A stretch of DNA of 64,000 nt from Vermamoeba vermiformis. Its lineage: Eukaryota. Each line of letters starts with the position of its first letter. The stretch's first letter is position 1. Of this stretch, positions 25,174-43,360 are shown one piece after another. The translations under genes were made by a program, and so were the position numbers. Location: the NCBI GenBank assembly GCA_045837725.1, contig JBEWZL010000272.1:310001-374000 (forward strand), in the 5' to 3' direction. The notes below the pieces were generated by a model. It saw only the letters and a program-made list of their open reading frames with translations, did no database searches and was not told where the DNA came from.

Positions 25174-28100
25174 TTACAACCAAGGCTGCCAAGAAATATC
25201 CATATTAGCCAAGTTAGCCTTGTTCGTAGCAGATTCGATCAGTTCGGTGATCTTCGCGTTAACAGGCGTAGTAGTCACGGGCTGTTCAGGGCGTACTGGC
25301 GGCATTAACTCGTCCAATCTCTCCAACACGGACTGAGTATTGCGACGAGTCAATTCATGAACGCTCAATTCAGTGAATCCCTTCGTGTTGACCAGATCAT
25401 GTGCCTCATCGCGGAACATCAAGTTGATCACATTGGCCAAGTTGTCTTTGCGATTCTTCTTGCCAATAGCGAGGGTGCACGCTGTCATTGCGCCGTTGAA
25501 GACACCGACAGTGTACATGCCATTGAAAAACTTTTGCACGTTCATGCCTAATCGGAACGGCACGGCCTCGTTGTTCGACAACAAACCTTTAGCATCGTAA
25601 TCTACACGCAAAAAAACATTAAAAAGACGCTCTTATACTAGTGATGGTATTGTACGTACTCGGCTTGAACTGTTGCAAGTGGACTTGCGCGCTCTCGGGC
25701 GTGAAAATAGTGCTTTGCGCGTGTCTGTTGGTGACAGCGAAGAGGTGCGACATGAGCGAGGACATGGCCCATTGCACAGAGAAGTGACGCTTGAACTCCC
25801 AGCACATCTCATAAGACTCGAGCATCTTATAATAAATATACTAATAACAAACGAATTAGACATTTGCACCAAGTTAAAAACACGAGTGAAACTTACGTCG
25901 CTGAAGATAGTGTCGGGAATGTAGTCCTTAGAGACCTCTTCAAAGGCTTGCAACTTGAGCTCTTGTAACTGTGCAGGGCTCATGAGCTTGGCGTTGGCAG
26001 CCATTCTCTTGCGAATGAACATGTACGGCGTGTCACTCTCCATGCCCTTCTTGTTGCAATAATCCTCGTACAAATCGTACAACGACTTGAAGAATCTCTC
26101 GCTCTGCAACAACAAACCGTCATTAATATCCAAAACTTAATTAAACCGATTCAGGCCAACTTACCACTGAGATCAATCGGGTGTTGTTGTTCAATTCAAC
26201 GATCTTAGGCACGTTCATATTGACGCTACGGTGTCTGCAGCCAATATCACGTTGCGTGACCTTAGTGATCTGTTGCAACAACTGAGCGAATCTCTGTTCA
26301 GACTTCGCGCCCATGTCGTAATCAGGACCAATTGTAGCTCGGTCAAGCGAGTGACCGGTATGGTGCACGAGGAAATGGTGCACATTGCCAACGTTGCTGC
26401 GAACAGACAACAAGCGGAGAGCAGCTGTCTTGCCCTTGAGGATCTTCATAGGTGTCAAGAACTTGTCAATGATGACACCACGTGGCTCAGCTGTCACGTC
26501 CTTTTCGTGCTGCAGAAACAAATTTAGAACTCACTCATTGTCACCACAAGGTACGTTTAAAACTTACGCCCAAGAATGCGCCAGGAAGTTCGAGGTGACT
26601 GTCATTTTGGAAGGACACCAAGAAGTGTGACACTTTCTCCAAGTGCTTCAATTGCTTGACACGACGTTCAGTAGCGAGACTCAACTTGTGGCACCAAGAC
26701 TTCAAGCGTTCGATCATTTGGTTGCTGTTGAACTTGCTAACCTCAACCAAGAGGTCGTTCTCAAACTCAGCCTTGTAGTCTTGCACGAATTGAGCAGTAG
26801 CTGTGGCACCGAAGAAGATTTGGTGAACTTTCTGCAATTGACCGACAATAGTAGGACGATCTTCTTGTAACTATAAAGAGCATTAGCAATACTCTCAATA
26901 TATATTTAGCTGTTAGAACTTACGTTGTAGCACTGATTCAAGATTTGTTTCAAGTGCCAAGTCATCTCTTCTTCGGGTAAAGGCATCAACTTCTCGCTGA
27001 TTTCAGTGGTGATTCGATCCAAGGTGCTAATTAAAGGTCCGTGCTTGGCCTTCATGGTGACCAAGATCTCTTCGGCGGCCTTAAGACCGTGCTGATTGGC
27101 CGGACTGAGCTTGGCCTTAGCACTCTTACGCTCAGTGATGTAAGTGTTGAGGGGCCAGAACACCGCTTGAGGATAGAACGTGCCAAGTCTGGTCAACAAC
27201 GCCTTCATGACAGCTGACTCGAGAGGTCGCTCGAGACCAGTCAAGAGCTGGTTGATCCAAGGCAACCACAACCACATGGGCATGGCGTTGAAGTGCTTCT
27301 CAAGGCTGTCAGCGAGCACTCCTTTAGCACCACTTGGTATGGCGGGCACAATAGCGCTGTTGCTGTTTTCATTGTTGACAACGTCAATGTCCATCTTGTC
27401 GTCGTCCTTGTCCTCGTCATCCTCGCCTTCAATTGGTTTGGCGCCACGAGCAGTTCTTGCACGCTTAGCTGGTGGCTTCTTAGGGTTAACCAATTCACGC
27501 TTGCGAGGATTCTTTTCGGAAGAAGTCTCGGTAGTGGGTTCTTCCTTAACAGCAGGATCTTTCTTCTCGCCATCAGCACCGTCAGTCTTCTTCTCTTCGG
27601 CCTCAGGCTCCTTCTTCTCAATCTCGCCAATCACAAGATCTGAAGGCGTGTCAAACTTGCCAACCTCCTCATCACCATCCAACAACCACAATACACGAGC
27701 CAAGTGCTTGCGAGACGGTGAGGCAGGGTTGCATTTGATGCCTTGCAAATAGCAGTTGACAGCGTATTGAGACCACAACATCTTTGTCTTGTTGTAGTTC
27801 GCATCTCCTTCCTTCGCAGAGGTCAAGTGCGAAGTCAACATGCTGTCACAGAACTTGGCCCAAGCAATCCAACCCTTCGAGAGGTTCTCGTGCAAAGCAA
27901 TAGAGGTTGAGAATGCAGCATTGCTTTCTTCGAAGAATCCCATGCGAGCTAAGAACATGCCCTTGAGCTGGAAGAACTCAGCTTTTTGTTGAGGGTTGAA
28001 CCAATCGATGTTAGTCGTGTTGAGCAAGTCCAAGCCAGATCTGTAGAGCTCAGGTTGGTTGAGGTAGCACTTGGTCTGCTCGCGTGTCTTGACAATGGCT

Positions 28101-31100
28101 TCTTGCACGTCAATGTTGGGCAGTGAGTAGATCTTAGTCAACAAGCTCAAGCACAACTCGGGTAAACCTTGACGGCGAGCAACACGAGCAAAGCGAGCGA
28201 TGGACCAGGCCATCTCGTGGTAACCGATCAAAGTGAGGTTAGGTGCTTGAGGATCAGCCTGACAGGCAGCATTGATCGTAGCATAGGTCTGTTGACGCCA
28301 CTGGAACAAATCAGCCCACAAACCAATGTCATCAAATTCGTTGGGCAATCGTTCACGCCAAGCTCTCAGAGTGACCTTGATGTCTTGTTGCTTTTGAATG
28401 CGATTCGGTGAACGAATTTCACGCAACAATTTGGCAGCCTCGTAGAGTTCAACGATTTGTTGGAATGTCTAGTAACGAATCAGCTCGTCTTCTACTTATT
28501 ATAGGCGTCATTAGTACTTACGTGCAACAAAGGTACGTGAGGCAAGCTCGGAGTCTTTGGCAAGCCGTTCCAAAGAGTGACGAGCACGCGCATGGCGTTC
28601 TTGCAAAGTTGATCGACATCCACGATTCTGTTCTCGTACAACGCCAAGAAACTTTGAATAATCTTGATACGAGGAGCATCAACGTTGAACGAGAACTTGC
28701 TGAATGCTTCCTTCAAGAGTGGCCAGTCTTGCACACGCCACGAAGATTCAACTTGAAGTTCACCCAAGTTGTTCGTGCGAGCGTATTCGGTCAGCACCTC
28801 CCACTGACTCAACTTCTTGGCGCTTTCAATCCATTGTTCTTCCCACAAGTTCATCTCCCAGTTGCTCACAGACTGAGTTTCCTTGCGCTGTTCCGACAAC
28901 AAGGCCTGGTAGAACAACTCTTGGCCACGTTGCCAGAAGTTGTGCTTTTGAAGGACCAAACCAGCTCGGGAAATATCAGTTGTAGCGCTCTGGTAGAGAA
29001 GACCGTAGTACAAGTCTTCTTCGAGAAGAGTCTTGTAGATCTCGCTCAAGTGCGAGATACACTTGTCTTGCTCGTCAATGGACGTAACAGCTCCCTTCAT
29101 GAGCTTTTCTTCGAGCACTTTAATAGCCATGTGCCATCCATTGAAATGTTTGCCCAAGAAGGCAACAAGCTCTGACGGAATCTCGATGCGAGGACTCTTG
29201 CACTTCAAGAATGCACGCATCAAAGCTTGCACAACGTTCGGTTGAACTCGTTGCTGCTTCATATGGTAGTCCTTAGACAAGAGCGTTACGATGGTAGACT
29301 TCAGGCGCTCCTTGTCTGCCATTTCTAGTTGGTTGTCCCAGATCAGAGGGAACAACGTTGACCACATGAAGATTGACAGCTCGGCGTCTTGGTGCACGAG
29401 TTCTCTGAACGGTTCCAACAAGACTCCCAGTTTCTGTGAACGGCAACCACTGAGGAACTCTTCGTGCTTGCTGACTAATTCTTTTGCTTCAGGAGTGAGG
29501 TTCAAACTGCCAGTGTTCATTGAGGGCACCTTGGCTGAAATGTACGACATTTTGAGCGGGAAATCAGTGTCGATGGTGGCGAGAATGATGTCAACGGCCA
29601 AACCAATCCAGAAGAATGAAGGCAATGGCTCCCAAGTTGTTGGATTCAATACGTATTCCACACGCTTGAGAACATCACGCTCGACCTTCTTGTTGAACAA
29701 ATCGAAGAACTTGGCACGAACAACAGGATCACGAGAGACCATGCCAGACATGAGAGTGCCTTCGAGTACTTGGAAGTCAACACGTGGCACAGGCTCCGAG
29801 TAGACAAAGTGAACAATATCCATGAAAAGGTTCTGCAAAGCCGCACTACGAACACGTTCAAATCGCTTCATGCGAAGAACAAACTGTGTGCGGTCTTGTT
29901 GAGTAAGAGAGGACGAAGGAGACATTATCCAGTCCTTCACGATCAATCCTGTTTCAACGAGCAAAGTTTCCTGGAAAAGTTTTGTTAGAACGAAGGTTTG
30001 CATAAAATATTCAATACTTACGTCAAGAGTCTTATCAATCAACAAGTACACTGCGTGCAGTAAGTTTCTCTTGAGGTCAGGGAGTAATGCAGGGTTGTCA
30101 ATTTGTGAAGCACACAACTGCAAGCTGCGCAACAAAGGTACGTGATCACGCTTGGCTTGCTGTTGAGGAACGCTGCCGCGCTTAGCTTGAGCACCAGGAG
30201 GTTGACCAGGCGTCGGTGAAACTGCACCTGGGACAGCTTCTTGTACCGGTGCGAAGTGCTCTTTGGCCAATCGCATCATCATCTTTATCAGATGAGGCAA
30301 GTAAGGCGAAAGAATTTCGGTGGCATTCGATGGTTCCACGATCGTTTTGAACAAGTACAGTAAGTTGAAGACGTTGTGCTTGTCAGCATTGACACCAGAC
30401 TCCAACAACTCTCCAATGCGCTTGAAGATCGCTTCCAAGGTGGAACGGATGCTCGTTGAGTACTCAGAAATGATCTTCTTGAGCACGGGTGCAAGAGCCT
30501 CAGTGATCTTCATGTTGTCAGAAGAGACAGCTGGCAACAAGCTCGTTTGCAAGGCACCAATGTTAGTCGCCAAGAATGACTTTTGTTGGAAGGTCAAAAT
30601 GACGTTCAAAATGTTCAACGAGGTGATCACGTAGTGCGGTTGATCAGCAGTGGGTGACAACAACTTCTCGAAGAACGCGAACTTGATGTTGACTGTAGGC
30701 CACAAAGCCAATGCCTCACGCAACAAGTCAAGTGCATAAGAAGCAACTTGAGCAGAAGTAGGGTCCTTAGGATCAGGTGTGGCAGCCATACGAGTGATGA
30801 AGTTAACGACCATTTCGATAGTCGTAGCTGGAGGCACGTAAGGAGGTTGAGGGGTGCTTGGAGTAGAGCCGTCAGGGTTCGGAGTAGTTTCTTGCGAGTC
30901 TTGCGCACCGCTTTCGTCAACAGCCATTGGTGTTGGCTCCTGCTTGACATCCGAAGTGGGTGCTTCAGTCGAGTTCTTGGCTTCTTCAATACGTTTCTTC
31001 TCCCAGTTAATGATCAACTCGACCAAGTTGCAAGCAAGCTTCTTGTTCTCAGGAGCTGAGTTCGGCAACAAACCAATGCGAGCCAAAGAGTTGCTGATGT

Positions 31101-34100
31101 GTTGCACGAAGTGGCCACGATACTTGTAAAAGATGTCGGAGTGTCTGACAATCAGTTGAAGCACGTGGATGAGAAGAGGCAAGGAGTGGCCGTCTTCGAT
31201 GATGACTTTACGAGTCCATTTGATCCAGTGCGGTGGATCTTGTGGAGCGAACTTCTTAAAAAGTGTGGGTGTCATAATGTCGAGTGCTTCGCGCACCAAT
31301 TGCTTGGCTTCAGGTTGATAAGACTTGAGCAAAGCCACGTAGACTTGCAAAATAATCTTGTCGGGAGTCTCGTAAACTTCGATAAATCTGCAAATCAACA
31401 AGTACGCAGACTGCTTGGCCGTGATATCTTCGTTCTTGAAGTGACTCCAAGCGAATCGAATGATTTCTTTTTTGTGAGTCTGAGGATCAAAATCGTAGCC
31501 CTTGAAATGCACGATCAACGCGGTCAATTGCAAGAACTCGATTTGCATTGATTGTGTGTATGCAGGGCTTTGCTTGCCAATAATGTCCGTGATGAAGCGA
31601 TGCATGAACTAATAAATGAAATTAGTATTAGCCTTAATATCGTCAATAAACTAAACGTACGTCTTTTTCTACGATCTCTTCCTTTCTGTTCAAGCACTTG
31701 TCGATCATTGGTGTCAAGAACACTTGCAAAGTTTGAACGCGGTGTTCATTGGAGTATTGAGGAGAGTGGAAGAACGTTAAGAAGTGGTTAACAATATTTT
31801 TCTTGCGTTCAACCGAGAACTTGTCAGGCAGCTCGTTTTGGTAAAAGTCGCGCAAGAAGTTAAAGTCCACGATTGTCTTTGTCGTGAAGATCGACAAGAG
31901 ATCAAATATCAATGCAACCTCGTCTTGATTCACACGGAAGTAAGCCAAGAAAATCTTGACGAGAATCTTTGACTCCTTCATGTGATGAGAAGGCATGCTT
32001 TCTTCGCGCAAGATTCGTTCCTCTCGCTGTCAGTACGTCAGTAAACGAACAGATCCAAAGTAATACGCTTGACTTACGGCAGGATTGCGCCACATTTGCA
32101 CCAAAGCATTGATGAGTTCTTGGTTATTGAGCCACTCAGGGACGAACTTGATCAACACACGAACCAACAGTAATGCTTGGAACTGCACTTCGTAGTTCGA
32201 TTGATCGTTCAAGTACGTAACAATACGACTGACATTCCTATAAAAGTGTTAAAAATAAATTCTAATTTTTATAGGGCTGAGTAAAACTTACTTTGCGAGT
32301 TCTTCGCGCAAAGGACCAGCAATGCTAGAGCGCAAGATGCCACGGAACAACTTGATCATATCTTCCTTGTCGATATTGCTAAGGAAGTAATTAACGCTGT
32401 CAGTTGCGTATCTGTTCAAGAATTTGATGAGTGGTGGACGGTAAGGGCTGTTCAATTCTCGTGAAGTGTTGTCGTGAGGCATAGAGCTCTCCATTCGCAA
32501 CACGAGGTTGATCAATTCCACCAAGAATCGAATGGCCGGCGTTGGCAACAAATGATAGACCTCTAAACAAGCAACGGCCATTTGAACTTCTTCACCAGGA
32601 GGCCAAGCTCGTTGTGAAGGAGGTGCCTTTTGTGACTCGATCCATTTGTTCATGTGCTCGATGATTTTATCTGCAGGAATACACCGTTAGATTTCTTACG
32701 AATTAAACGAAAAATAGTAAATTATTAAAACACTTTCATACTAATGAGTAATTGTCAATCAGCATCATATCATCGTGATATTGGATAATCATTCGGTTAA
32801 ATTTAAGGTAAACTTGCAACCTCTGGTACTTACCACCAATAGCAATGTTGAAGTACTTCGAATGGGTCTCGAGCAAGCAGGCCAGACCAAGCAACAAAGA
32901 CAAGCTCAACGTGTGCCACTGTCCAAACTTCAGCAAAACAGGACGCAAAGATTCGCTCAAAGCGTTCTTAGGCAAGTTATCGCCAATGTTCAGTGTCTGC
33001 TCCATCGCTCTCTTGGCAGCTTTGCGGAGCAACTCATTGCGAACAATAATGGTCTTCGTGATGACTGAGAACAGCTTATGACGCATTTCAGCTTTCTAAT
33101 ACGAGCAGTAAGTTAGTTAAGAGTGTAATGTCAGAGTATAATAGTAACACTTACGATCTCCTCGGAAGCAGCTGAAGCAGCGAATACCTCCAAAGCAGCG
33201 ACCTTAAACTCGACCAATTGAGACAGACGTTGAGCACCAGCTCCAGGGATAGAGGTAGTAACACCTTCCATATGAACTGTTGGTGAGTTGGTGACACGTG
33301 CTTGATTGTCGTCTTCGGTGTCAGACAAAACTAACACTTCTTCAATGAGTTCGAGAAGCTCATTTGACAAGCGCAACAAAGGTGGACGAAGTTGCAAGCA
33401 GAAAGCAAGGGTCTCTAAGATGGCTGTTTGCTTGGCAATTGGATGAGTCTTCAACGGGAACTCGAAGACAGGTTTGCGAATGTGCTGTTCAGTGAACGGT
33501 TCCAACAACTCCGACACTTCATCGCCGGTGATTTCAGCGAGTGCTCGCAAAGCAGACTGAACAGCAGTACGAACTGCCTTTGTAGTGTTCAATAAGTTGG
33601 CTGCCAAGAAGGACACAACTTCGCGCAAGACCTCTTCTTGTTCTACGCTAGCATTGCGTGCATTGCAACTGCTGATAACATTGGCGAAAGTCTGCGAAGC
33701 GTCTTCGAGGGTAGACAGTGATACTGCGTGAGGGATGTCTTGAAGGGTCTGCAAAAGTCCTTTCAAGAACGGCAATTGGTGCGTGCGAGTCCACTCGATG
33801 GGCATCAATGACACTAAGTGAGATATGCCCAAGCAGCCACCAGCCTTGAAGTACCACTCCTTATGGAAGCAGCAAGCATAGAAGCGTAAAGCTAACTCTT
33901 CAAAGACGGGCAACGAGGCAGCCTTGACCTTATCTCCGTAGAACTTCTGTGCGACAGAGAAGAGGATGTCAATTGCCTTTTGAGCTGCCTTTGCGTGAGA
34001 TCTGTTCTCAGATGTGATTACATCCAACAAAGCTTCAGTGAAGATCATCGGATCCAGCTCCTACAACACAGTTAGCAGCCTGCTACCAAATTATATCAGT

Positions 34101-37100
34101 GTTATTACGTACGTTTAACTTTGCAGTAGAAGGTTGTTTCTTGGTAGCAAATAGAATGGCGAAGTGAGTGCAAATGTCCTCGAAGAATGCCGTGGGATTC
34201 TCTTTCGTCAAATCGTCGAAAGTTGACGCGGTGAACAAGCAGCTCAAAACGACCTTGAGAGTGTTTGACTCGGAGCGAAGCATCTTCTTGGTCTTGATGA
34301 TCTTGTTCTGCTTGCCGTCAATGAACTCGACCTTGATGGGGTAGTTCAACTGAGCAATTTCTTCGTCGGTCAACAAGCTCAATCCTTCGATGGGCTTCGA
34401 GTCCAAAAGTGCAGACAAACAAGACTTGAAGAACTTGAAACCGTATTGTTTGCGCAAAGGTGTCAAGGGAGAGCTTGGAGGTGAAGTCAACAACAGTCTG
34501 CGAGCAGCATAAATGGCCTCTTTCAGACCAATTTCTTCGGTTCTTCCTTGGTCGAATGGGATCACTAAGGAAATGCCGTTGTCCACAAAACGGGTAGTTT
34601 TCTAAGTATTAATTAGTAACTGTCTCAATAACTAGTGCCATCAACTTACGATTTGAGGAGGCAAGCCGAAGTAATCTCTGTCACGGCCAGCCATTTTACC
34701 GAGAATTCTCAGCACTTGAGGTGCGTATGAGTAATAGGGCAACTTCAAGTGACGCCACAAAGCCTTCATCAATCGCGGCTTGATGTCAGCCATGATGGGC
34801 TCGAAGAAGTCAATGGACAGCTTGTCCACGCACAACTCGAGCAAGCGCAAGCCTTGCATCACGATCTCGCTGCCGGACTCGATTGAGAGCAACAAAGGCT
34901 TCATCAAGAGTCTCAAGTTGGGCAAGAGGGCAGACAGACGCACTGGCACCGTCAAACTCAATTCAACGAACAGCTCACGCATTTGTTGACTGTATGAGCT
35001 GTCGTGCAATTGGTTGAGTGTTTCCAACAAACCTAAGGAGCCATTAGCATCAGCTTTATAGTACTTGGCACGAATCTACTTACCAGGCAACAAGGGCGAG
35101 AACTCACGAGTAAACATATCGATCTTCACACTGGCCACGCTCTTAAACAAGTAGCGCAAGAGTTGGAAGTAGTTACCGGCACTCTCTGTGTCTCTGCACT
35201 CGCTGGCATGCTGCAAGCATTGCACAACAATTGTTGCCAAGTGCGGTTGCAAAATGGATTCGATCTCGTTAGAGGGTTGTTGCAAGACAGAGAAGGTAAG
35301 CTTGAATAAGCGCAACAAGATATAGTTCTTGTCGGTTGCAATGTCCCTAAAGTGACACGTTAATGTAAGTCCTCACTGAAGCAGATGTGGTACTACGTAC
35401 TTCAAGCGATTCATCAAGAAACTGACGAGGGTTTCCGCGAAGAATCTATGAGAGTGCGGGCTAGTAATAAACAGCTGTGCAGTATACAGCAACATCTGAT
35501 TTTCGGAAATGCTATTGAAGTAAAAGTCCATGTTGTTCGACATGACCTCTTGGAAGATTCGGGGATCAGGTGAGGTGAAGAGGGCAAAGTAGGCCTCAAA
35601 AAGCTGAATGAATACGTTAGTTTAAGTATAAACCGCATTTGGTAATAAGTTTCATACCTCTTTTTCTTCAGCTTGGCTCAGACTAGGCGGCACAGTGAAG
35701 ATATTCATGCATCTGGTAATGTTCTTGAAGAGTTTGGTAAAGATAGTAGCTTCTTCAACCAACTGGGCCTTGGACAAGGGACCAGCGGGCACTAACGAGG
35801 GAGGTTGCTGTTGACCTTGATTGAGAGGCACAAACTGACTTTGAGTCATGGCGGAGATCACGTTACGCGTGCCCAAGATCAAAGTGCGAATCAAAGTTCG
35901 GCATTCTAAGTAACGAGTTAGCACAATAGGTCTTGCAGTAAACAAGGCACAGTAATCGTTCTTACCTCGATAAGTTTCTGGCAAGTTGAGCGCATCCAAG
36001 TTTTGCGCGGTCGCAACGGTCGGTGTTGGTGATTGTGCCATAGTGAAGGACTGAGCCAATGAAGGAGGCTTCGGAATATTAGGCATCTGCACACTCGATG
36101 TGAGACTGATAGGAGCCAAGCCACTCTCAGCAGCTGGAGTAGCGGCAGCTTTATCTTTTTCAGCAGATGCGCTCGATGCGTTCTTAGCGTTCTCTTTCTC
36201 AACCTTCTCTTTGACTTCTTCGATGAATTTTGGCACCTCTTTTTTGAAGCTAGCAAACTTGCTTGCAAAAGTATCGAGGATCTTTGTGAGAAGCACTCTG
36301 CTGTTTACTTCACCAACGTTCGGATTCGCTCTACTGATGCACTCGAGCAAGTTCAAAATGAGCTTGACGGACATAGTCTGAATAGAGTATGGCAACGTTA
36401 GGTCATGAAGATTGCGTGAGTACAAGTGTGCGATGTGCGACAACTGCTCAAAGCTGAGTTGCTGGCGAACGTGGTGCACGAGATCAGCCAACATGCTGTA
36501 GGCAAGTGGACTAATGTTACGAGTTAGAAAATATATTGTTGATATGCTTTAAGGATAATTGTATTCAAATTCAAAGGCTGAGCTGAGATCTGGTTGGAGT
36601 TTAGATGCATCTACTTACCGCAAAGTCTCGTAGCAGGTTCTGCCGTTACCAATGAGCACTTGTTCATCAATAAGTGTGTCGATATGTGGCACGAATCCTT
36701 TTCTGAATTCAGTGGCGAGTATGTGACGAGTAGCGATCAGCAGTTCACGACGAGTAGATGCGAGTTCTGGCGGGCAGTTACGCAGCAATTGAATGACGCT
36801 ACGAGGTACTTGTTCTTCATAATTACGGAAAGACTCAGCGAAGCTTCGTAGCATATAAGCCAAGAAAGACAAGGTCTGCAAGGTCACGGTTAGATCGAGC
36901 AAGCACGCCGAGAGAATTCTTTAATTTCAGATAAAATTGGTATAATTACCTTCACTTGGGCGGCAATAAAGTCTGTATAGTGTGCACGGTGAGTATTGTA
37001 AGCGTCTGGAGGTGCTTGAAGTGCCAAAGTCTGCACGATCAGCGGCAAAAATTTTGGCAAGTTCGGAGGCAGCAAGCGACTGTAGAGTTGGAGTAATAGT

Positions 37101-37972
37101 ACAACGATAATAGGGCACTCTGTTAGCACCTTGAAAGAGCTCATGGCTCTGATCAAAGGTTGCGATCCCTTGTTCGCTTTCTCGTCGAACATGGGATCCT
37201 TGCCTGAGAGTAATACGTTTAACTTTAAGCTCAAAAATACGTTGATATAATGACTTACCAGGAATAGGCTCGGCAACCTTTGCCGGTGTTTCGCTGAAGA
37301 TCTTGTTGACCGTGCTAGGCAGCTGTTCATAGATCTTGATCACAATGTCAAAGAAAGGCTGTACGTCTTGTTCTAATGTAGGTCTATAGTTCTTGTGTAA
37401 ATCGATGATAATTCTTAAGCAGATCAGTGCATTCTCTTCGTTCTCGCTCGAGAGCAAATACATGACGACTTTAAGCAAGGGTTTGACGACAGCTCTGAAG
37501 ACATCGTTGTTCGGCAATCTATTAAGAATTTCCAATATCATATTACGGAGCTTTTGTTCGGGATTGTCTGCTATGAACTGAGGCTTTGTTTCCTTCAAGA
37601 TGCCGAAAAACACGGGCAAAACTGTTTTCAAAAATTTTTCGTAGTCACTATTTGATGGATGTGCTGTTTCAATATTGTCTCGTAATTCCGTTGTCATACG
37701 GATTTGCTTTCCAATGTCTACCATAAAAAAATTAATATCTCGGCGCCAAAAATAAGTAATAATCAACAAACAGCACTACGTCAATAAATTATTCCAAATT
37801 ATATTTTTTATAGCATTAAAATATAATATTATTGGCGTGTTGGTCGATTCTTACCACCGGCTTTGCCTGCATTGCCAAGCTCGTTGATCCAGACATCATA
37901 CTGATGGCTCAACAACAGCTTTAGGAAGCTTTCTTCCTTCGGCTTTTGTTGTGGTTGTTCAGGTGTTGCCAT
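25174..37972 (-). CDS. TRRAP: TRRAP/Tra1 PIKK pseudokinase (SAGA/NuA4 scaffold)
   Basis: LEILNRLP, ENEENALICLRIIIDLHKNYRP, SFKVLTECPIIVVLL, ELSLTVPVRLSALLP, FAT region WRERLPNEFDD..W, EAVPFRL and C-terminal DISWQPWL. About 22 introns, all read as GT-AG. Confidence 0.97.
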
Positions 37973-38153
37973 CTTGGGCGACAAAGTTGTTGAAAGAACA
38001 GCCAGGCTGACCGTTTTTTTTTGCTCGTAGAAAACTGGGAGAAAACTGGATTTAACCTGCGCCCCCGGTAAAAACCTAGCACCCAAAGTGAGGGGACCAA
38101 TGCACTTTACGGTGCAGCCTTCCTTTTTTCATTCATCCGGCACGATAGTAACA

Positions 38154-39443
38154 ATGCAGCGATTTAGTTTATTTATATTTATTCTGGCTGCCGTAGTTGT
38201 TGCATCTAATGCAGAATCTCTTTGCCAGCGACTGGCTGCAGGATCTGGTTCACAAAGAGCGTTTATGCAACAGCTTCTTGGGTTGTCTTTTACGATCATT
38301 ACAAATGATAACTCCCTTGCACCGTTTTTCGACGGCACTGCGCTCGATCGAAGTGGTAAAAACGTGACCAATTATATTGGCAATAGTACCCTGTATCAAC
38401 AACTTATTGACTCACACGTTAAATACTTCGGAAAGTAAGTTGATGGTCCGATTGATTTTTAATTAAATATTTTCGAATCTGCGATCTAACGCAGCTCCCT
38501 TAGGCTTTTTAACTGCACTGATTCGAGCATCCCTAAATATGATGGTCCTAGTATGGAAGCAGCCCACGCTAACCTGAAAATCAGTTCTATCTTATTCGAG
38601 CACTATCAGGTTCTATCAATGGATGTCTTGCCGATCGCTGCGCTTGGCAAAGTAACCACCGCAATAGAAATCGAAGTATCTGAATTATACGAGAAACACC
38701 GAGGAATTGTTGCTGATGATCAAATCTGCAACGAAGACGACTGTAAGCTTGCTACTTTGACTCTGGACGATTGGGAGAACCTCTACCCTATGTTCTTGAA
38801 TATGGAGCAACAACAAAATGTGACAATCGTGAACCAATACATGCAGGCTATCAATTTTACTTTGTTGAACATTACCGCTGATGGATCGTGCTCCCCAATG
38901 GGTCCTATTATTACTGTTGCTGCTGGCTCAAGCGTCACCACTAGCTCACTTGGAGAGCTGTCAGCTGGTGACTATTACTTTGGCAAGTGGCCTGCAAACT
39001 GCATGCTGCACAGTGCCTCCGTTAGTCCTATGATTACGAAGATCCATGTTCGTTCCTCTGCGGCAGCTCCAGTCGAGGCACCCGTCGAACCGCCCGTGGA
39101 ACCACCTGTGAATCCTCCAGTTAAAGCACCCGTGCAACCTCCTGTCAAATCACCTCAACAGCCACCAACAAGCCCTCCAGTTAAATCGCCTCCCCATGCA
39201 CCGGCAGCACCCATTAGTCCTCCAGTCGAGACACCAATGTCTTTTGGTCCATCTTCGGCTCCAGTCAGCGATCCCGCCTCACAACCTATTGCTGCTCCTG
39301 AGAGCCACGATAACAACGAACACGATTTGACGCCCGTCGTCATTGTCCTCAGCATTGCCGTTGCTGTTTTGTTAGGCGTGGTGATCTTCTTAGTATACAA
39401 ATTGAAGAAGAAAGAGCCTCATTACGAGATCATCAACGACTAA
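38154..39443 (+). CDS. Type I membrane protein: signal peptide, truncated (2/2) globin, cupredoxin-like domain, Pro-rich stalk, TM helix
   Basis: NDNSLAPFF...LIDSHVKYF...YDGPSMEAAHANLKIS..LF matches group I truncated haemoglobins; GDYYF...CMLH..PM..KIHV; TM VVIVLSIAVAVLLGVVIFLV; one intron. Confidence 0.75.
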
Positions 39444-39612
39444 CCAGTTTTGTTTTAATTTTTGCGAATTATATAAATACGCACAATGTATGATTTTAAA
39501 TGTATCTTTATAGTGATAATAATGTGGCACATTAAATAAGAACAAAAGTATTTACATCGCGAGTTCGCTTTGGATCCGATCGGTTATTATTTGCTGAATT
39601 CTATTCTCTTTT

Positions 39613-40886
39613 CTAACAGCAACCTCCTTTCTCAGCCTTAGCAGCACCTTCGCCTTGAACGTCAGGTTGAATGACATTAGAGCGAGGAGCGCTGGCAGTC
39701 TTAGGCAACTTCTTAGCTACACGTGCACGACGTTAGTTAAACGCCTAATAAGTAAATTATCGTAGTCTGTGCACTTACCAATAGCAACGAACAACTCATT
39801 TACATTGGCACTGGTCTTGGCAGAAGTTTCATAAAATAACAGGCCGTTCTCGTCAGCGTAAGCTTGAGCCTCAGCAACGTCAACTTGTCGCTTGTTAGCC
39901 AAATCTAGCTTGTTGCCAGATAAGGCAATAACGATGTTAGGGCTGCCTTGACGTTGCAATTCCTTAACCCAAGTCTTGGCACGTTCGAAACTGTCTTTGG
40001 AGGTCAGATCGTACACAACGATTGCTGCTTGAGCACCGCGGTAGTACATAGGAGCCAAGCTGTGGTATCTGTAGAATAAAGTACATTAGTATTACAATCG
40101 CATGATTCGTTTGAAAGCGATCAGCGAATTCTTGTATTTCAATTTTCGATCGATTATTTACAGTCAACTCTGAAATTTAATTCGCTCAGAGAAATTAATA
40201 TTTTAGGTTCAACGCGTTTAAATAGAATATACGTTCATTTGGAAATTGTCTTAATAATGCAGTAATTGAATTTGAATTTGCGTTTTTGCGATCCCAAATT
40301 TACTTGAAAGAAATTTTCTAATATTCAAATGATAGCGTATAACGGTCGGCGGTGGTCAATAATTAATGATCTAAATACCTCTCTTGGCCAGCAGTATCCC
40401 AAATCTGTTAAAGAAAATGATCAGCCCGCTGTTTCATTATTCCATCTTATTTAAACTACTTACTTCGAATTTAACGGTTGTGTCGTTAAGGCATACTGTT
40501 TGAGTTAAGAATGCAGCTAAATAAATAATTTAGTATTCGTTTATTTCGGAGCAGATTGGTGGTCTGTCTTAAAAATTACGACCAGCAAATTAAATTAGCC
40601 TTATAATTATTTTGTACGTAAAGTTTAACGATAATATTATGAGTCATAATTATTAGTTGCTGGCACATACAAACGGAAAAATAACAAAAAAAATTGCAAT
40701 AAGACTGTTTCTATGCGTAATAGCGATTGTAGCATCCAAAAATATTTTCATTATTTAATTACCTCCAATAGTGCTTTCTTGATATTCCAAAAACTGGCCC
40801 TTTACGAATCGAAGGACCAAACTGGATTTACCAACAGAAGATTCTCCCAAGAGAACTAATTTGAATTGGAATATTTTGCTATTCAT
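39613..40886 (-). CDS. RAB5: Rab5 GTPase
   Basis: [66 protein letters not shown]-terminal GGCC. Confidence 0.95.
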
Positions 40887-41234
40887 ATTTGTTGATTGTA
40901 TGCGTCAGAAGTTAAAAAATTAGTTGGCAAAGCAGAAGTGGGAGCATTAAAACATTTTGCGCAGGATTTCAGCGCAAAACCGAACAATTTTGTTCGCGAA
41001 GTGCCGCAAATTCGCAATTTTAAAGTAATAGCAAACAAATACAGAGTTAGAGGGATTAGTGAGTAAGTAATTATCGATACCGCGCGTTGTTTTCACGATG
41101 GTGATCCTCATACATACATCTGACCGTTACCAATTAATTTTAATATAATATTTTATTATCGATGTATTACAGTAATTATACTAATTATTATTACTGTAGA
41201 GAAGCGTATTTATTGCTTCAAGACCACGAGAAAA

Positions 41235-42290
41235 ATGTCCAGAGAGATCCCTAGTGGTATTTACCAAATTAAAACAGTATTTTTGGGGGCTGCTGGCGTG
41301 GGAAAATCATCCATTGCTCTGCGCTTCGTGCGGGAGGATTTTTTCCCCGCGGTGGAAGGCACCATTGGTGCTGCCTTCATGACAAAGAGCGTGCCATACA
41401 ATCCAAACACAACGCTGAAATTTGAGGTAAATAGAACGAATATTATCAAAAAATAATTGTTATGTGTAGCGTTTTAATTCAATTAATTAATTAATTTTTA
41501 TTTTGATTAGATCTGGGACACAGCGGGCCAAGAAAATAAGTATCAATTCCAATTAATTAGCTGCCGTATCATTTAATATATTTGAACGACCGTTACTAAT
41601 TTTTCTTTTCTATTTACGGTATAACAGCTTGGCACCAATGTACTACCGCGGAGCTCACGTTGGCATCGTCGTATATGACATTACATCGAAGGTAAATTAA
41701 TAATATGTATCATGATATTAATATTTACAATATAATACGTATTTTGAACGAAACTCCGCACGTACATTTTATTTTTCAATTGAGATTTTATTTGTGCCAC
41801 TAGCCATTCGTTACGTTTGACTTACATTTGCTATTTATAGCCTACATTTGAAAGAGCGAAGAAGTGGCTCGAAGAGGTGATGGAGGAAGAAGGACGTAAT
41901 GGCATGGTGATTGTACTCGTTGGTAACAAAGTAGATTTGGCAGCACAACGAGAAATTCCGACGGAAGACGGCAAGAAATTTGCAGATTCAAAGGGCGTGT
42001 ATTTTAACGAAGTTAGTGCTAAGGCTAATATTCAAGTCACGGAGTTATTTGCTGAAATTGGTACGTTCAAAAATTTCCGATCGTTTGACACATCTACCAA
42101 CCACACATTTGATATTCGTTTGCTAATTAGCTAATTCGAGGAAATAGCTCTAATTATATACTATTTTACAGCAAAGCGAATACCATTTGATAAAATGGCT
42201 GGCGCGCCAATTCCTAATTTGGTAAAGCCACGTGAGCCAGAAAGAAATGACCACGCTAGTAGCCGCAAGTGCAACTGTGTAATTATGTAA
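41235..42290 (+). CDS. Divergent Rab5-family GTPase paralogue
   Basis: [15 protein letters not shown]...[14 protein letters not shown][R][24 protein letters not shown]-terminal CNCVIM. Confidence 0.9.
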
Positions 42291-42562
42291 CTATACCATA
42301 CCTGCGACATTATATATCTTATTTTACGAATACTATCAATTTGTTATTCGTGGCGAAAAATTGAACCGTGCTCTTTGATTGGATCTGCACGCGTTTTGGA
42401 AAATTACTTATGATAATTGGTTTTTGATTCAATCAATAACGTAATTTCGATGTAAATATGTACAAAGCTAGATGGACAATAAAATAACGAATTGCAATGA
42501 CGATTTCAATCGAAATTTGATCGTTTGATGGAATATTAACATTTTATAGACACTTTATACAA

Positions 42563-43360
42563 TTAAGGAAATAGCGAGGCCATAGCACTCGGATCAGACA
42601 TTCTTCCCAGCGCAAAAAATAACCCGCTCCATGCGATCCAAGCCGCGACTTTTGCCGTAGCTTTTAACGCACCAGTAGACTTTCTAGGTTTTGGAATAGG
42701 CTCAGTTGCCGCCGGCTCGCCTTCTTCTTCCACATGGCTCTCATTATTGGGCTCGTCTAAGCCTTCGTTAGTAGTTGCTTGCTCACGAGTTGGTTCGGTT
42801 GCCTCGATCTGCTCTTGCGGCTTTTGGTCGTTCTGAATGATGACTGGCGAGCAGAGTGCGTCGCTGGGCGATGATATTGTGATTATAGCAGTAGGAGTAG
42901 TCACTGTTGTCGTTAGCATTTGCTTGGCGACTTCTTTTGGTAGTTCTGGGACTAGATTTGGCTTGGGTTTTTCTTCTGGTAAGTCACCCGTTAAACGACG
43001 CTTTTTCTTAGGCGGCTCATCTTCGCTACTTTTTACAGATGATTGCGAGCTACTATTCGACTCCGAAGACACCGACTCAGACGAAAAATCAACTTCGATC
43101 GAGTGATCCCTGTCAGAGAAGTGTTAATTCTGCGCTGATTCTACTTCTTATTAAGATACTACTTACATCAAATCGCCAATGTCAACGTTTATGGGCTCTT
43201 CATTAGTGCTTCCAAGCTTTCTCTTACGGCTACCTGGGCTGGTTGAAGATTCGGATCGCTCATCGGACTTGTGGTTTGGGCTAGACTGACGCGAGCGAAG
43301 GCAATTATTGACCTCCCATTCGACATCGAATTTTTCTAGACGATCAAGGAAGGTTGCCAT
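42563..43360 (-). CDS. Hypothetical disordered protein with NLS-like motifs and a C-terminal TM helix (tail-anchored)
   Basis: Two exons joined by a GT-AG intron; RKRK and PPKKKRR; terminal VAAWIAWSGLFFALG. Confidence 0.6.

Follow-up and report, generated by a model that had tools for sequence, protein, structure and literature searches.

U2-type AT-AC introns are a known, rare class. A survey of five genomes counted 24 of them (15 in human, 6 in mouse, 3 in fly, none in worm and none in Arabidopsis), or 0.003% of introns (Sheth et al. 2006, PMC1557818, counts and Table 1), and fungal annotations hold few AT-AC introns as far as the available text of PMC7072748 goes. Described members have a strong /ATAAGT donor consensus (PMC5029451, available portion) with a G at position +5 (PMC2831892, available portion), and introns whose first base has mutated from G to A are rescued when the last base goes from G to C (PMC1557818, same sections). 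The origin of these introns is debated, the two proposals being relics of U12-type introns and double mutants of GT-AG introns. Debated, too, is whether single-base intron sliding occurs at all; in the accessible part of PMC10639083 it is regarded as very rare at most.

Here we describe an 82-nt AT-AC intron in a Rab5-like paralogue of Vermamoeba vermiformis, found in a stretch of 64,000 nt (hereafter the window) to which all coordinates refer unless another locus is named. The junction is present in RNA, the intron is conserved, the gene is under purifying selection, and the intron is offset by 1 nt from the GT-AG intron of the adjacent Rab5 gene. Judged from its sequence, the locus appears to be a further case of the U2-type AT-AC class, with clean 1-nt intron sliding. 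An earlier sequence-only reading of this DNA had suggested the same combination, and the RNA junction, the U2-like signals and the exact 1-nt offset bear it out. Because a GT-AG intron after base 2 and an AT-AC intron after base 1 of the same codon occur in one head-to-head gene pair, both debated questions become testable here.

Like the U2-type AT-AC introns of SCN4A, SCN5A and TAF2 (human/Drosophila), as far as these are covered in the consulted sections of PMC1557818, the intron has AT-AC ends, a U2-type donor (/ATAAGT, G at +5) and cross-species conservation. Unlike them, it lies in a Rab5-family gene of a microbial eukaryote, beside a 25-nt microexon. The SCN4A and SCN5A introns have been shown to need the major spliceosome, whereas for this one the need is predicted from sequence. 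The positionally homologous intron of its paralogues is GT-AG and 1 nt off, which points to a GT-AG, U2-type origin; for the sodium-channel introns, the available part of PMC2831892 suggests descent from U12-type introns instead. With U12-type AT-AC introns the intron shares terminal AT and AC and a phase other than 0, but it lacks /ATATCCTT (4/9) and TCCTTAAC (5/8), and has a pyrimidine tract and TACTAAT. That the major spliceosome can splice A...C introns is also seen in engineered double mutants (G1A plus last G-to-C) of yeast and human and in the nested AT-AC intron of S. cerevisiae RPL30 (PMC5029451, citing Parker and Siliciano 1993). According to the accessible portion of that paper, however, these are laboratory constructs or a 1–2% side product with an atypical donor, whereas the junction described here is the sole productive one of a conserved gene and has a consensus-like donor. 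As in known 1-nt intron sliding, a single nucleotide separates the positions of the paralogue introns within an invariant motif that aligns without gaps; unlike in known cases, the shift is coupled to a change from GT-AG to AT-AC, with both states side by side in a head-to-head pair. In the literature searched, we met neither an AT-AC intron reported from a Rab5-family gene nor a case in which sliding went together with AT-AC ends.

Structure and product of the Rab5-like paralogue

Four data sets were aligned to positions 39300–42700: X21 and X23 are raw-read RNA runs, X1 consists of DNA contigs, and X5 consists of contigs that behave like RNA. The RNA runs bear the same species label and stem from other individuals, of strains 95–99% identical to the window. 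The paralogue is encoded on the plus strand in five coding exons, from an ATG at 41235 to a TAA ending at 42290, with an intron in the 5′UTR ahead of them:

41063..41199, plus strand: 5′UTR intron; GTAAGT...TAG, TACTAAT 15 nt from the 3′ end; joint 41062→41200 in a spliced X5 contig
41235..41426, plus strand: coding exon 1, ATG at 41235; MSREIPSG...TLKFE with P-loop GAAGVGKS; X5 contig 12 spans 41200–41424; spliced translation
41427..41510, plus strand: GT-AG intron, phase 0, position as in Rab5; X5 contig joint 41424→41509, cut +2
41511..41535, plus strand: 25-nt microexon encoding IWDTAGQE plus base 1 of the Arg codon (ATC TGG GAC ACA GCG GGC CAA GAA A); RNA and translation
41536..41617, plus strand: AT-AC intron, 82 nt, phase 1; RNA joint 41535→41618, conserved in L001 and L032, signal scores
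41618..41691, plus strand: exon 3, beginning GG TAT AAC AGC TTG GCA CCA ATG TAC TAC; X5 contig 13
41692..41840, plus strand: GT-AG intron with no counterpart in Rab5; joint 41689→41839, cut +2
41841..42060, plus strand: exon 4; X5 contig 13, 90% identity to P0001
42061..42171, plus strand: GT-AG intron, phase 1, position as the last Rab5 intron; joint 42059→42171, cut +1
42172..42290, plus strand: final coding exon; the protein closes with the CaaX-type tail ...SRKCNCVIM before the stop; sequence, RNA and translation

A search with exon 4 found one close protein, P0001 (207 aa, from a 1020-nt contig, 90% identical), which is transcript-derived and represents a third lineage. It carries the same switch-II reading as the AT-AC-spliced product. 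The encoded protein is a Ras-fold GTPase: P0001 matches Pfam Ras at 2.7e-53, and its best relatives of solved structure are RABF2b and Rab5A/B/C (1e-50 to 1e-52). The paralogue is closest to Rab5 and has the switch II motif in its spliced product, as expected of the Rab5 subfamily. Rab proteins are prenylated at a C-terminal double-cysteine motif (CC or CXC); the paralogue does not end in one, its tail being ...KCNCVIM, of CaaX type, in the window (42270–42290), in the related locus L032 (1956–1976) and in P0001. Apart from P0001, a full-length search of a 5.8-billion-protein collection returned no relative above ~60% identity, so the paralogue appears confined to a narrow clade. We classify it as a divergent, lineage-restricted Rab5-family GTPase gene.

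The AT-AC junction in RNA and its alternatives

The microexon ends ...CAA GAA A at 41535, after base 1 of the switch-II Arg codon (A|GG); the intron, 41536–41617, opens ATAAGTATC and closes CTATTTAC, and exon 3 starts at 41618. The donor ATAAGTAT occupies 41536–41543, the branch site TACTAAT 41594–41600, the pyrimidine tract 41600–41615 and the terminal AC 41616–41617. Enumerating every GT-AG, GC-AG and AT-AC pair near the site that leaves the frame open gave 30 candidates. Only the removal of 41536–41617 (ATAAGT...TTTAC) restores switch II, just as the sequence-only reading had stated; the other 29 (GT-AG, GC-AG and other AT-AC pairs) destroy or lengthen it. That reading had also named 41540–41627 as the only nearby GT-AG choice. 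This pair is indeed in frame and gives QENNLAP, with switch II lost, but it is not the only one: 41566–41653 is a second in-frame GT-AG pair, and it loses switch II as well. The donor at 41540, GTATCA, is a poor U2 site, and the in-frame pair 41540–41627 is present in L032 too.

The joint 41535→41618, which skips the 82 nt bounded by AT and AC, was found in two X23 reads with two different starts and in one spliced X5 contig; X21 had none. The X5 contig (302 nt, depth 5.6) divides without remainder into 27 nt of UTR exon, then exon 1, the microexon (25 nt) and a 23-nt piece of exon 3, and a second X5 contig begins 7 nt ahead of 41618. With 'both' = 0 at this joint, the cut is unambiguous. All remaining introns of the two genes appear in RNA as GT-AG joints. 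Junction mapping, the check proposed earlier, thus recovered the AT-AC joint and not 41540→41627, which is absent from all four runs, as is any other joint across the AT-AC site. The competing GT-AG isoform that had been envisaged thereby goes without a single joint, at a very low depth of two reads and one or two contigs over the site, at which a minor isoform could be missed.

Paralogue depth was at most ~1–2, as against 20–30 on Rab5 exons. The far lower expression of the paralogue was seen in both X21 and X23.

An assembly error, which the sequence-only reading had listed as a possible source of the unusual ends, is not borne out. X1 contig 6 spans 41197–41740 with 0 differences to the window, which speaks against an error at the site, although X1 may be the source sample itself and would then lend no independent support. 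The ends are identical in L001, which belongs to a different assembly.

Conservation of the intron and selection on the gene

A metagenome scan with P0001 gave 72 loci, whose intron positions were read from the DNA sequence. L001 belongs to a near-identical strain and has the same 82-nt AT-AC intron, with three differences, all in the intron's 3′ half. L032 comes from a more distant species (88% protein identity) and has an 87-nt intron, ATACGTATC...CTCTATAC, at the same place, with the ends ATACGT...CTATAC and the donor ATACGTAT. A second contig of an L032-like species, L058, stops 7 nt into the intron (...CAAGAAA|ATACGTA), its donor starting as in L032. AT-AC ends were therefore present in all three genomic sequences that span the intron (window, L001 and L032), and the donor alone in the partial L058. 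The two genomic lineages of the paralogue that we found are both already AT-AC.

Between the window and L032, the spliced coding sequences have 102 identical codons, 83 with synonymous differences only and 22 with non-synonymous differences, and under the AT-AC model the reading frames are intact in both. The paralogue is under purifying selection. The excess of synonymous over non-synonymous differences (83 versus 22) indicates that the gene has been kept functional, so that correct splicing has been needed in both lineages. This matters for how the RNA is read: a GT-AG intron after base 2 in the RNA strain would give an identical mRNA, and the use of AT-AC ends does not follow from the reads by themselves. 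It is the conservation of the genomic AT-AC ends, together with purifying selection, that argues for their use. Another intron has changed between the two lineages, as the L032 paralogue (971–1133, aligned to 41235–41426 of the window) retains a TIG|G intron that is also present in Rab5, and the window paralogue has lost it precisely.

The AT-AC intron itself is 67% identical between the window and L032 (58/87; z 8.2 versus shuffles), whereas three neighbouring introns are 49–53% identical after gapped alignment (z 2.4–4.5). Its first 52 nt (41536–41587 in the window, 1279–1330 in L032) align without gaps and with 39/52 identities, for which the binomial tail is 2e-4 to 2e-2 at neutral identities of 0.5–0.6. 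Conservation at +5 to +8 fits extended pairing with U1, and that at +9 to +52 may reflect an intronic enhancer serving a weak intron beside a microexon. Folding of the intron with its flanks gave no structure beyond shuffled sequences (z +1.10 for the window, +0.66 for L032) and no covariation; the window does not preserve the UUCCAA/UUGGAA stem predicted for L032.

Splice signals resemble the U2 type

As a yardstick for the intron's signals we used eight GT-AG introns from the two window genes, each supported by RNA, along with four introns of L032. U1 pairing was scored against the canonical U1 5′ end, which is assumed to hold for this genome. The AT-AC intron matches the U1 complement at 8 of 11 positions, seven of them contiguous (+2 to +8) and with G at +5, and is the sole window intron to match U1 at both +7 and +8. 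The donor begins /ATAAGT, with G at +5, in the window and L001 (ATAAGTAT in both), and the L032 donor ATACGTAT likewise fits the U2-type consensus apart from position +1. The branch A is 18 nt from the 3′ end, as compared with 15–18 nt in neighbouring introns (17 in Rab5_i3, 15 in the UTR intron), and the pyrimidine fraction of 0.83 is the highest of 15 introns scored, so that both branch site and tract resemble those of the introns nearby.

Matches to U12-type signals were at the level of the controls. Against the U12 donor ([AG]TATCCTT / RTATCCTTT) the intron scored 4/9, with most GT-AG controls at 3–4/9 and L032_ib at 7/9; against the U12 branch site (TCCTTRAC) its best score was 5/8, with most controls at 4–6/8 and Rab5_i2 at 7/8. 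The higher scores of these two controls concern one motif each and are due to chance. The intron thus has neither a U12-type donor nor the U12-type arrangement of a branch site ~10–15 nt from the 3′ end without a tract. A Physarum-style branch motif, TTTGA, does occur, but with the A 32 nt before the 3′ end instead of 9–12 nt, and it is not conserved in L032, which has TTGGA. An Rfam scan of the 64-kb window hit no family; neither an snRNA nor an embedded small RNA turned up there. The ATAAGT donor and the TACTAAT, set against U12 scores of 4/9 and 5/8, agree with the earlier description of these signals as U2-like and not U12-like, and the tract points the same way. Taken together, the signals make the major, U2-dependent spliceosome the most likely one to remove the intron.

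The neighbouring Rab5 gene and the 1-nt offset

The Rab5 gene starts with an ATG at 40886 and reads along the minus strand, head-to-head with the paralogue; it is a typical Rab5 with the tail GGCC. Two of its features matter for the comparison:

40069..40378, minus strand: Rab5 intron, GTATTT...CTACAG, after base 2 of the Arg codon (AG|A) and followed by A TAC CAC; TACTAAT 17 nt from the 3′ end; X5 joint 40068→40379
40379..40404, minus strand: 26-nt Rab5 microexon (IWDTAGQE plus AG, ending GAG AG); sequence and RNA

Two bases of the Rab5 microexon are different in X21 and X23, so it is seen there as letters between 40070 and 40464 (a 393-nt skip), not as two joints. Both genes carry IWDTAGQE on a microexon of 25–26 nt (40379–40404 on the minus strand, 41511–41535 on the plus strand). 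The arrangement of the pair (39613–42290), with starts ~350 nt apart, is kept in L001, L032 and L058.

Around the Arg codon, Rab5 and the paralogue align without gaps in an invariant motif, with the intron after base 2 in Rab5 and after base 1 in the paralogue. The two genes share a phase-0 intron (KFE|IWD) and a phase-1 intron near the C-terminus. Introns 1 nt apart in an ungapped alignment, with other intron positions in common, are what 1-nt sliding should leave behind. All four other Rab5-family loci with an intron at this codon (Rab5, L058, L068 and L053) have GT-AG after base 2, their codons being split AG|A, AG|G or CG|T as against A|GG in the paralogue. The L058 case is the Rab5 of the L032 species, the L068 gene has RYAALAPLYYRGAG and is one that we take to be plant ARA6-like, and L053 is the CG|T case. 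In L053, from another organism, the intron at ~490–520 is only 26 nt long (GTAAAC...TCTAG). Two further loci (L067 and L071) are interrupted one codon earlier, and in the rest of the 72 the motif region is uninterrupted, interrupted further downstream or uncovered. None of the 72 has a U12-type intron at this codon.

The GT-AG intron stands after base 2 in Rab5 and in three more loci of the family, so the 1-nt offset is genuine, and the spread of the phase-2 GT-AG intron across the family makes that position look ancestral and the AT-AC position derived. The contrast that the sequence-only reading had drawn between a phase-2 GT-AG intron in Rab5 and a phase-1 intron here is upheld by the Rab5 intron (40378–40069) and by the three other loci, and the comparison of intron positions in relatives that it had called for returns the same 1-nt offset in each of them. 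Its further suggestion of a relic of U12-to-U2 conversion fared worse, with GT-AG one base away in all four other loci and nothing of U12 type among the 72; as read from the sequences, this pattern argues against such a relic.

Origin of the AT-AC intron and alternative explanations

We consider it likely that the intron at 41536–41617 is genuine and constitutive, most likely U2-dependent, and derived by a 1-nt shift from an old GT-AG intron of the Rab5 family. In such a scheme, U1 would dock at +2 to +8 (UAAGUAU), where the uninterrupted match, G at +5 included, is unusually long, and U2 on TACTAAT, 18 nt upstream of the 3′ end and followed by a strong pyrimidine tract. The first-base A and the last-base C would stand in for the usual non-Watson–Crick contact between two Gs that is needed in the second step. 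The old GT-AG intron of Rab5-family genes, which splits the switch-II Arg codon behind base 2, would have been the ancestor; both borders would have moved one base upstream and the ends changed from G..G to A..C, leaving the mRNA reading unchanged. At least three mutations separate ...AG|GT...AG|G... from ...A|AT...AC|GG..., and no intermediate state was seen among the related loci found. The acting spliceosome, the compensation by U1, and the direction and steps of the slide are what we infer from signals and positions. The fuller scenario, to which we give an even chance, is a birth independent of U12: a GT-AG Rab5-family intron would have become a stable U2-type AT-AC intron during a 1-nt slide, held by U1 pairing at +2 to +8 and a conserved element in its first 52 nt, and kept while ~45% of the amino-acid-identical codons changed synonymously.

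We regard as unlikely a U12-dependent intron, or one left over from the recent conversion of a U12-type AT-AC intron to U2 type. AT-AC ends elsewhere are mostly of U12 type, existing U2-type AT-AC introns have been argued to stem from U12-type ones (Lin et al. 2010, PMC2831892, available portion), minor spliceosomes occur in some amoebozoans, and phase 1 is a phase that minor introns favour (both in the accessible parts of PMC10639083, the former also in those of a Physarum preprint). Against these general expectations stand the U12 scores of the intron, no better than those of most GT-AG introns compared, the strong tract and TACTAAT, a TTTGA that is misplaced and not in L032, and the plain GT-AG state of the homologous intron in 4/4 other loci, with no U12-type intron at the codon in 72. 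A very unlikely reading is that the AT-AC ends go unused in the window strain, because the copy is disabled or spliced at other sites such as 41540–41627, the RNA joints coming from strains with canonical ends. The RNA runs are indeed 95–99% and not 100% identical to the window, expression is very low (depth at most ~1–2 versus 20–30 for Rab5), and the in-frame GT-AG pair exists in L032 as well. Yet AT-AC ends are common to the window, L001, the distant L032 and L058, so strains nested between them most likely have AT-AC too; with frames intact and 83 against 22 codon differences, a disabled copy is hard to reconcile, and the GT-AG alternatives delete or replace invariant switch-II residues, depend on the poor GTATCA donor and have no joint. 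Extremely unlikely, finally, is a library artefact, whether template switching by reverse transcriptase or a mis-assembled contig. What speaks for it is that just two reads and a contig with short sides (27 and 23 nt) carry the joint; template switching is rejected because the joint is without microhomology, the same joint comes from two unrelated data sets (X23 reads and X5 contigs), and P0001 has the same reading, the product restoring the invariant motif exactly.

Returning to the genuine, U2-dependent AT-AC intron as the preferred explanation, one consequence is practical: annotation pipelines that accept only GT-AG will mis-predict this gene. We give little chance to the broader idea that the lineage might tolerate such AT-AC introns more widely, missed by GT-AG-only gene finders; such tolerance would fit the absence of the paralogue protein from the 5.8-billion-protein collection but for one transcript-derived entry.

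Other observations in the window

Two further discontinuities were recorded in the RNA. Position 40379 is joined to 41860 on the opposite strand in four X21 reads, seven X23 reads and one X5 contig (depth 29); the join links the border of the Rab5 microexon to 21 nt of paralogue exon 4, and unrelated sequence follows from 41880. The 21-nt short side suggests another locus or a chimera. Downstream of the paralogue stop, a 79-nt skip at 42363–42443 with the ends AA..GT (five X21 reads, one X23 read) is probably a strain deletion, not an intron. Among the other genes of the window, Grg1 (a family described from fungi) and the hybrid histidine kinase at first pointed to a fungus, but in a search with a Tra1 exon the best named matches were amoebozoan (Balamuthia at 37% identity, dictyostelids and Pelomyxa, within 31–37%), narrowly ahead of plants and fungi, which makes an amoebozoan source probable, though weakly so, from gene content. 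The genes recognized elsewhere in the window are as follows:

~12.7–13.2 kb: La-domain gene
~18.8–19.2 kb: Grg1 gene
25177–38128, minus strand: Tra1/TRRAP gene (Tra1_central, Tra1_ring, FAT, FATC) with many short introns
~52.5–53.0 kb: Menorin gene
~56.1–58.5 kb: hybrid histidine kinase gene
~63.0–63.5 kb: F-box gene
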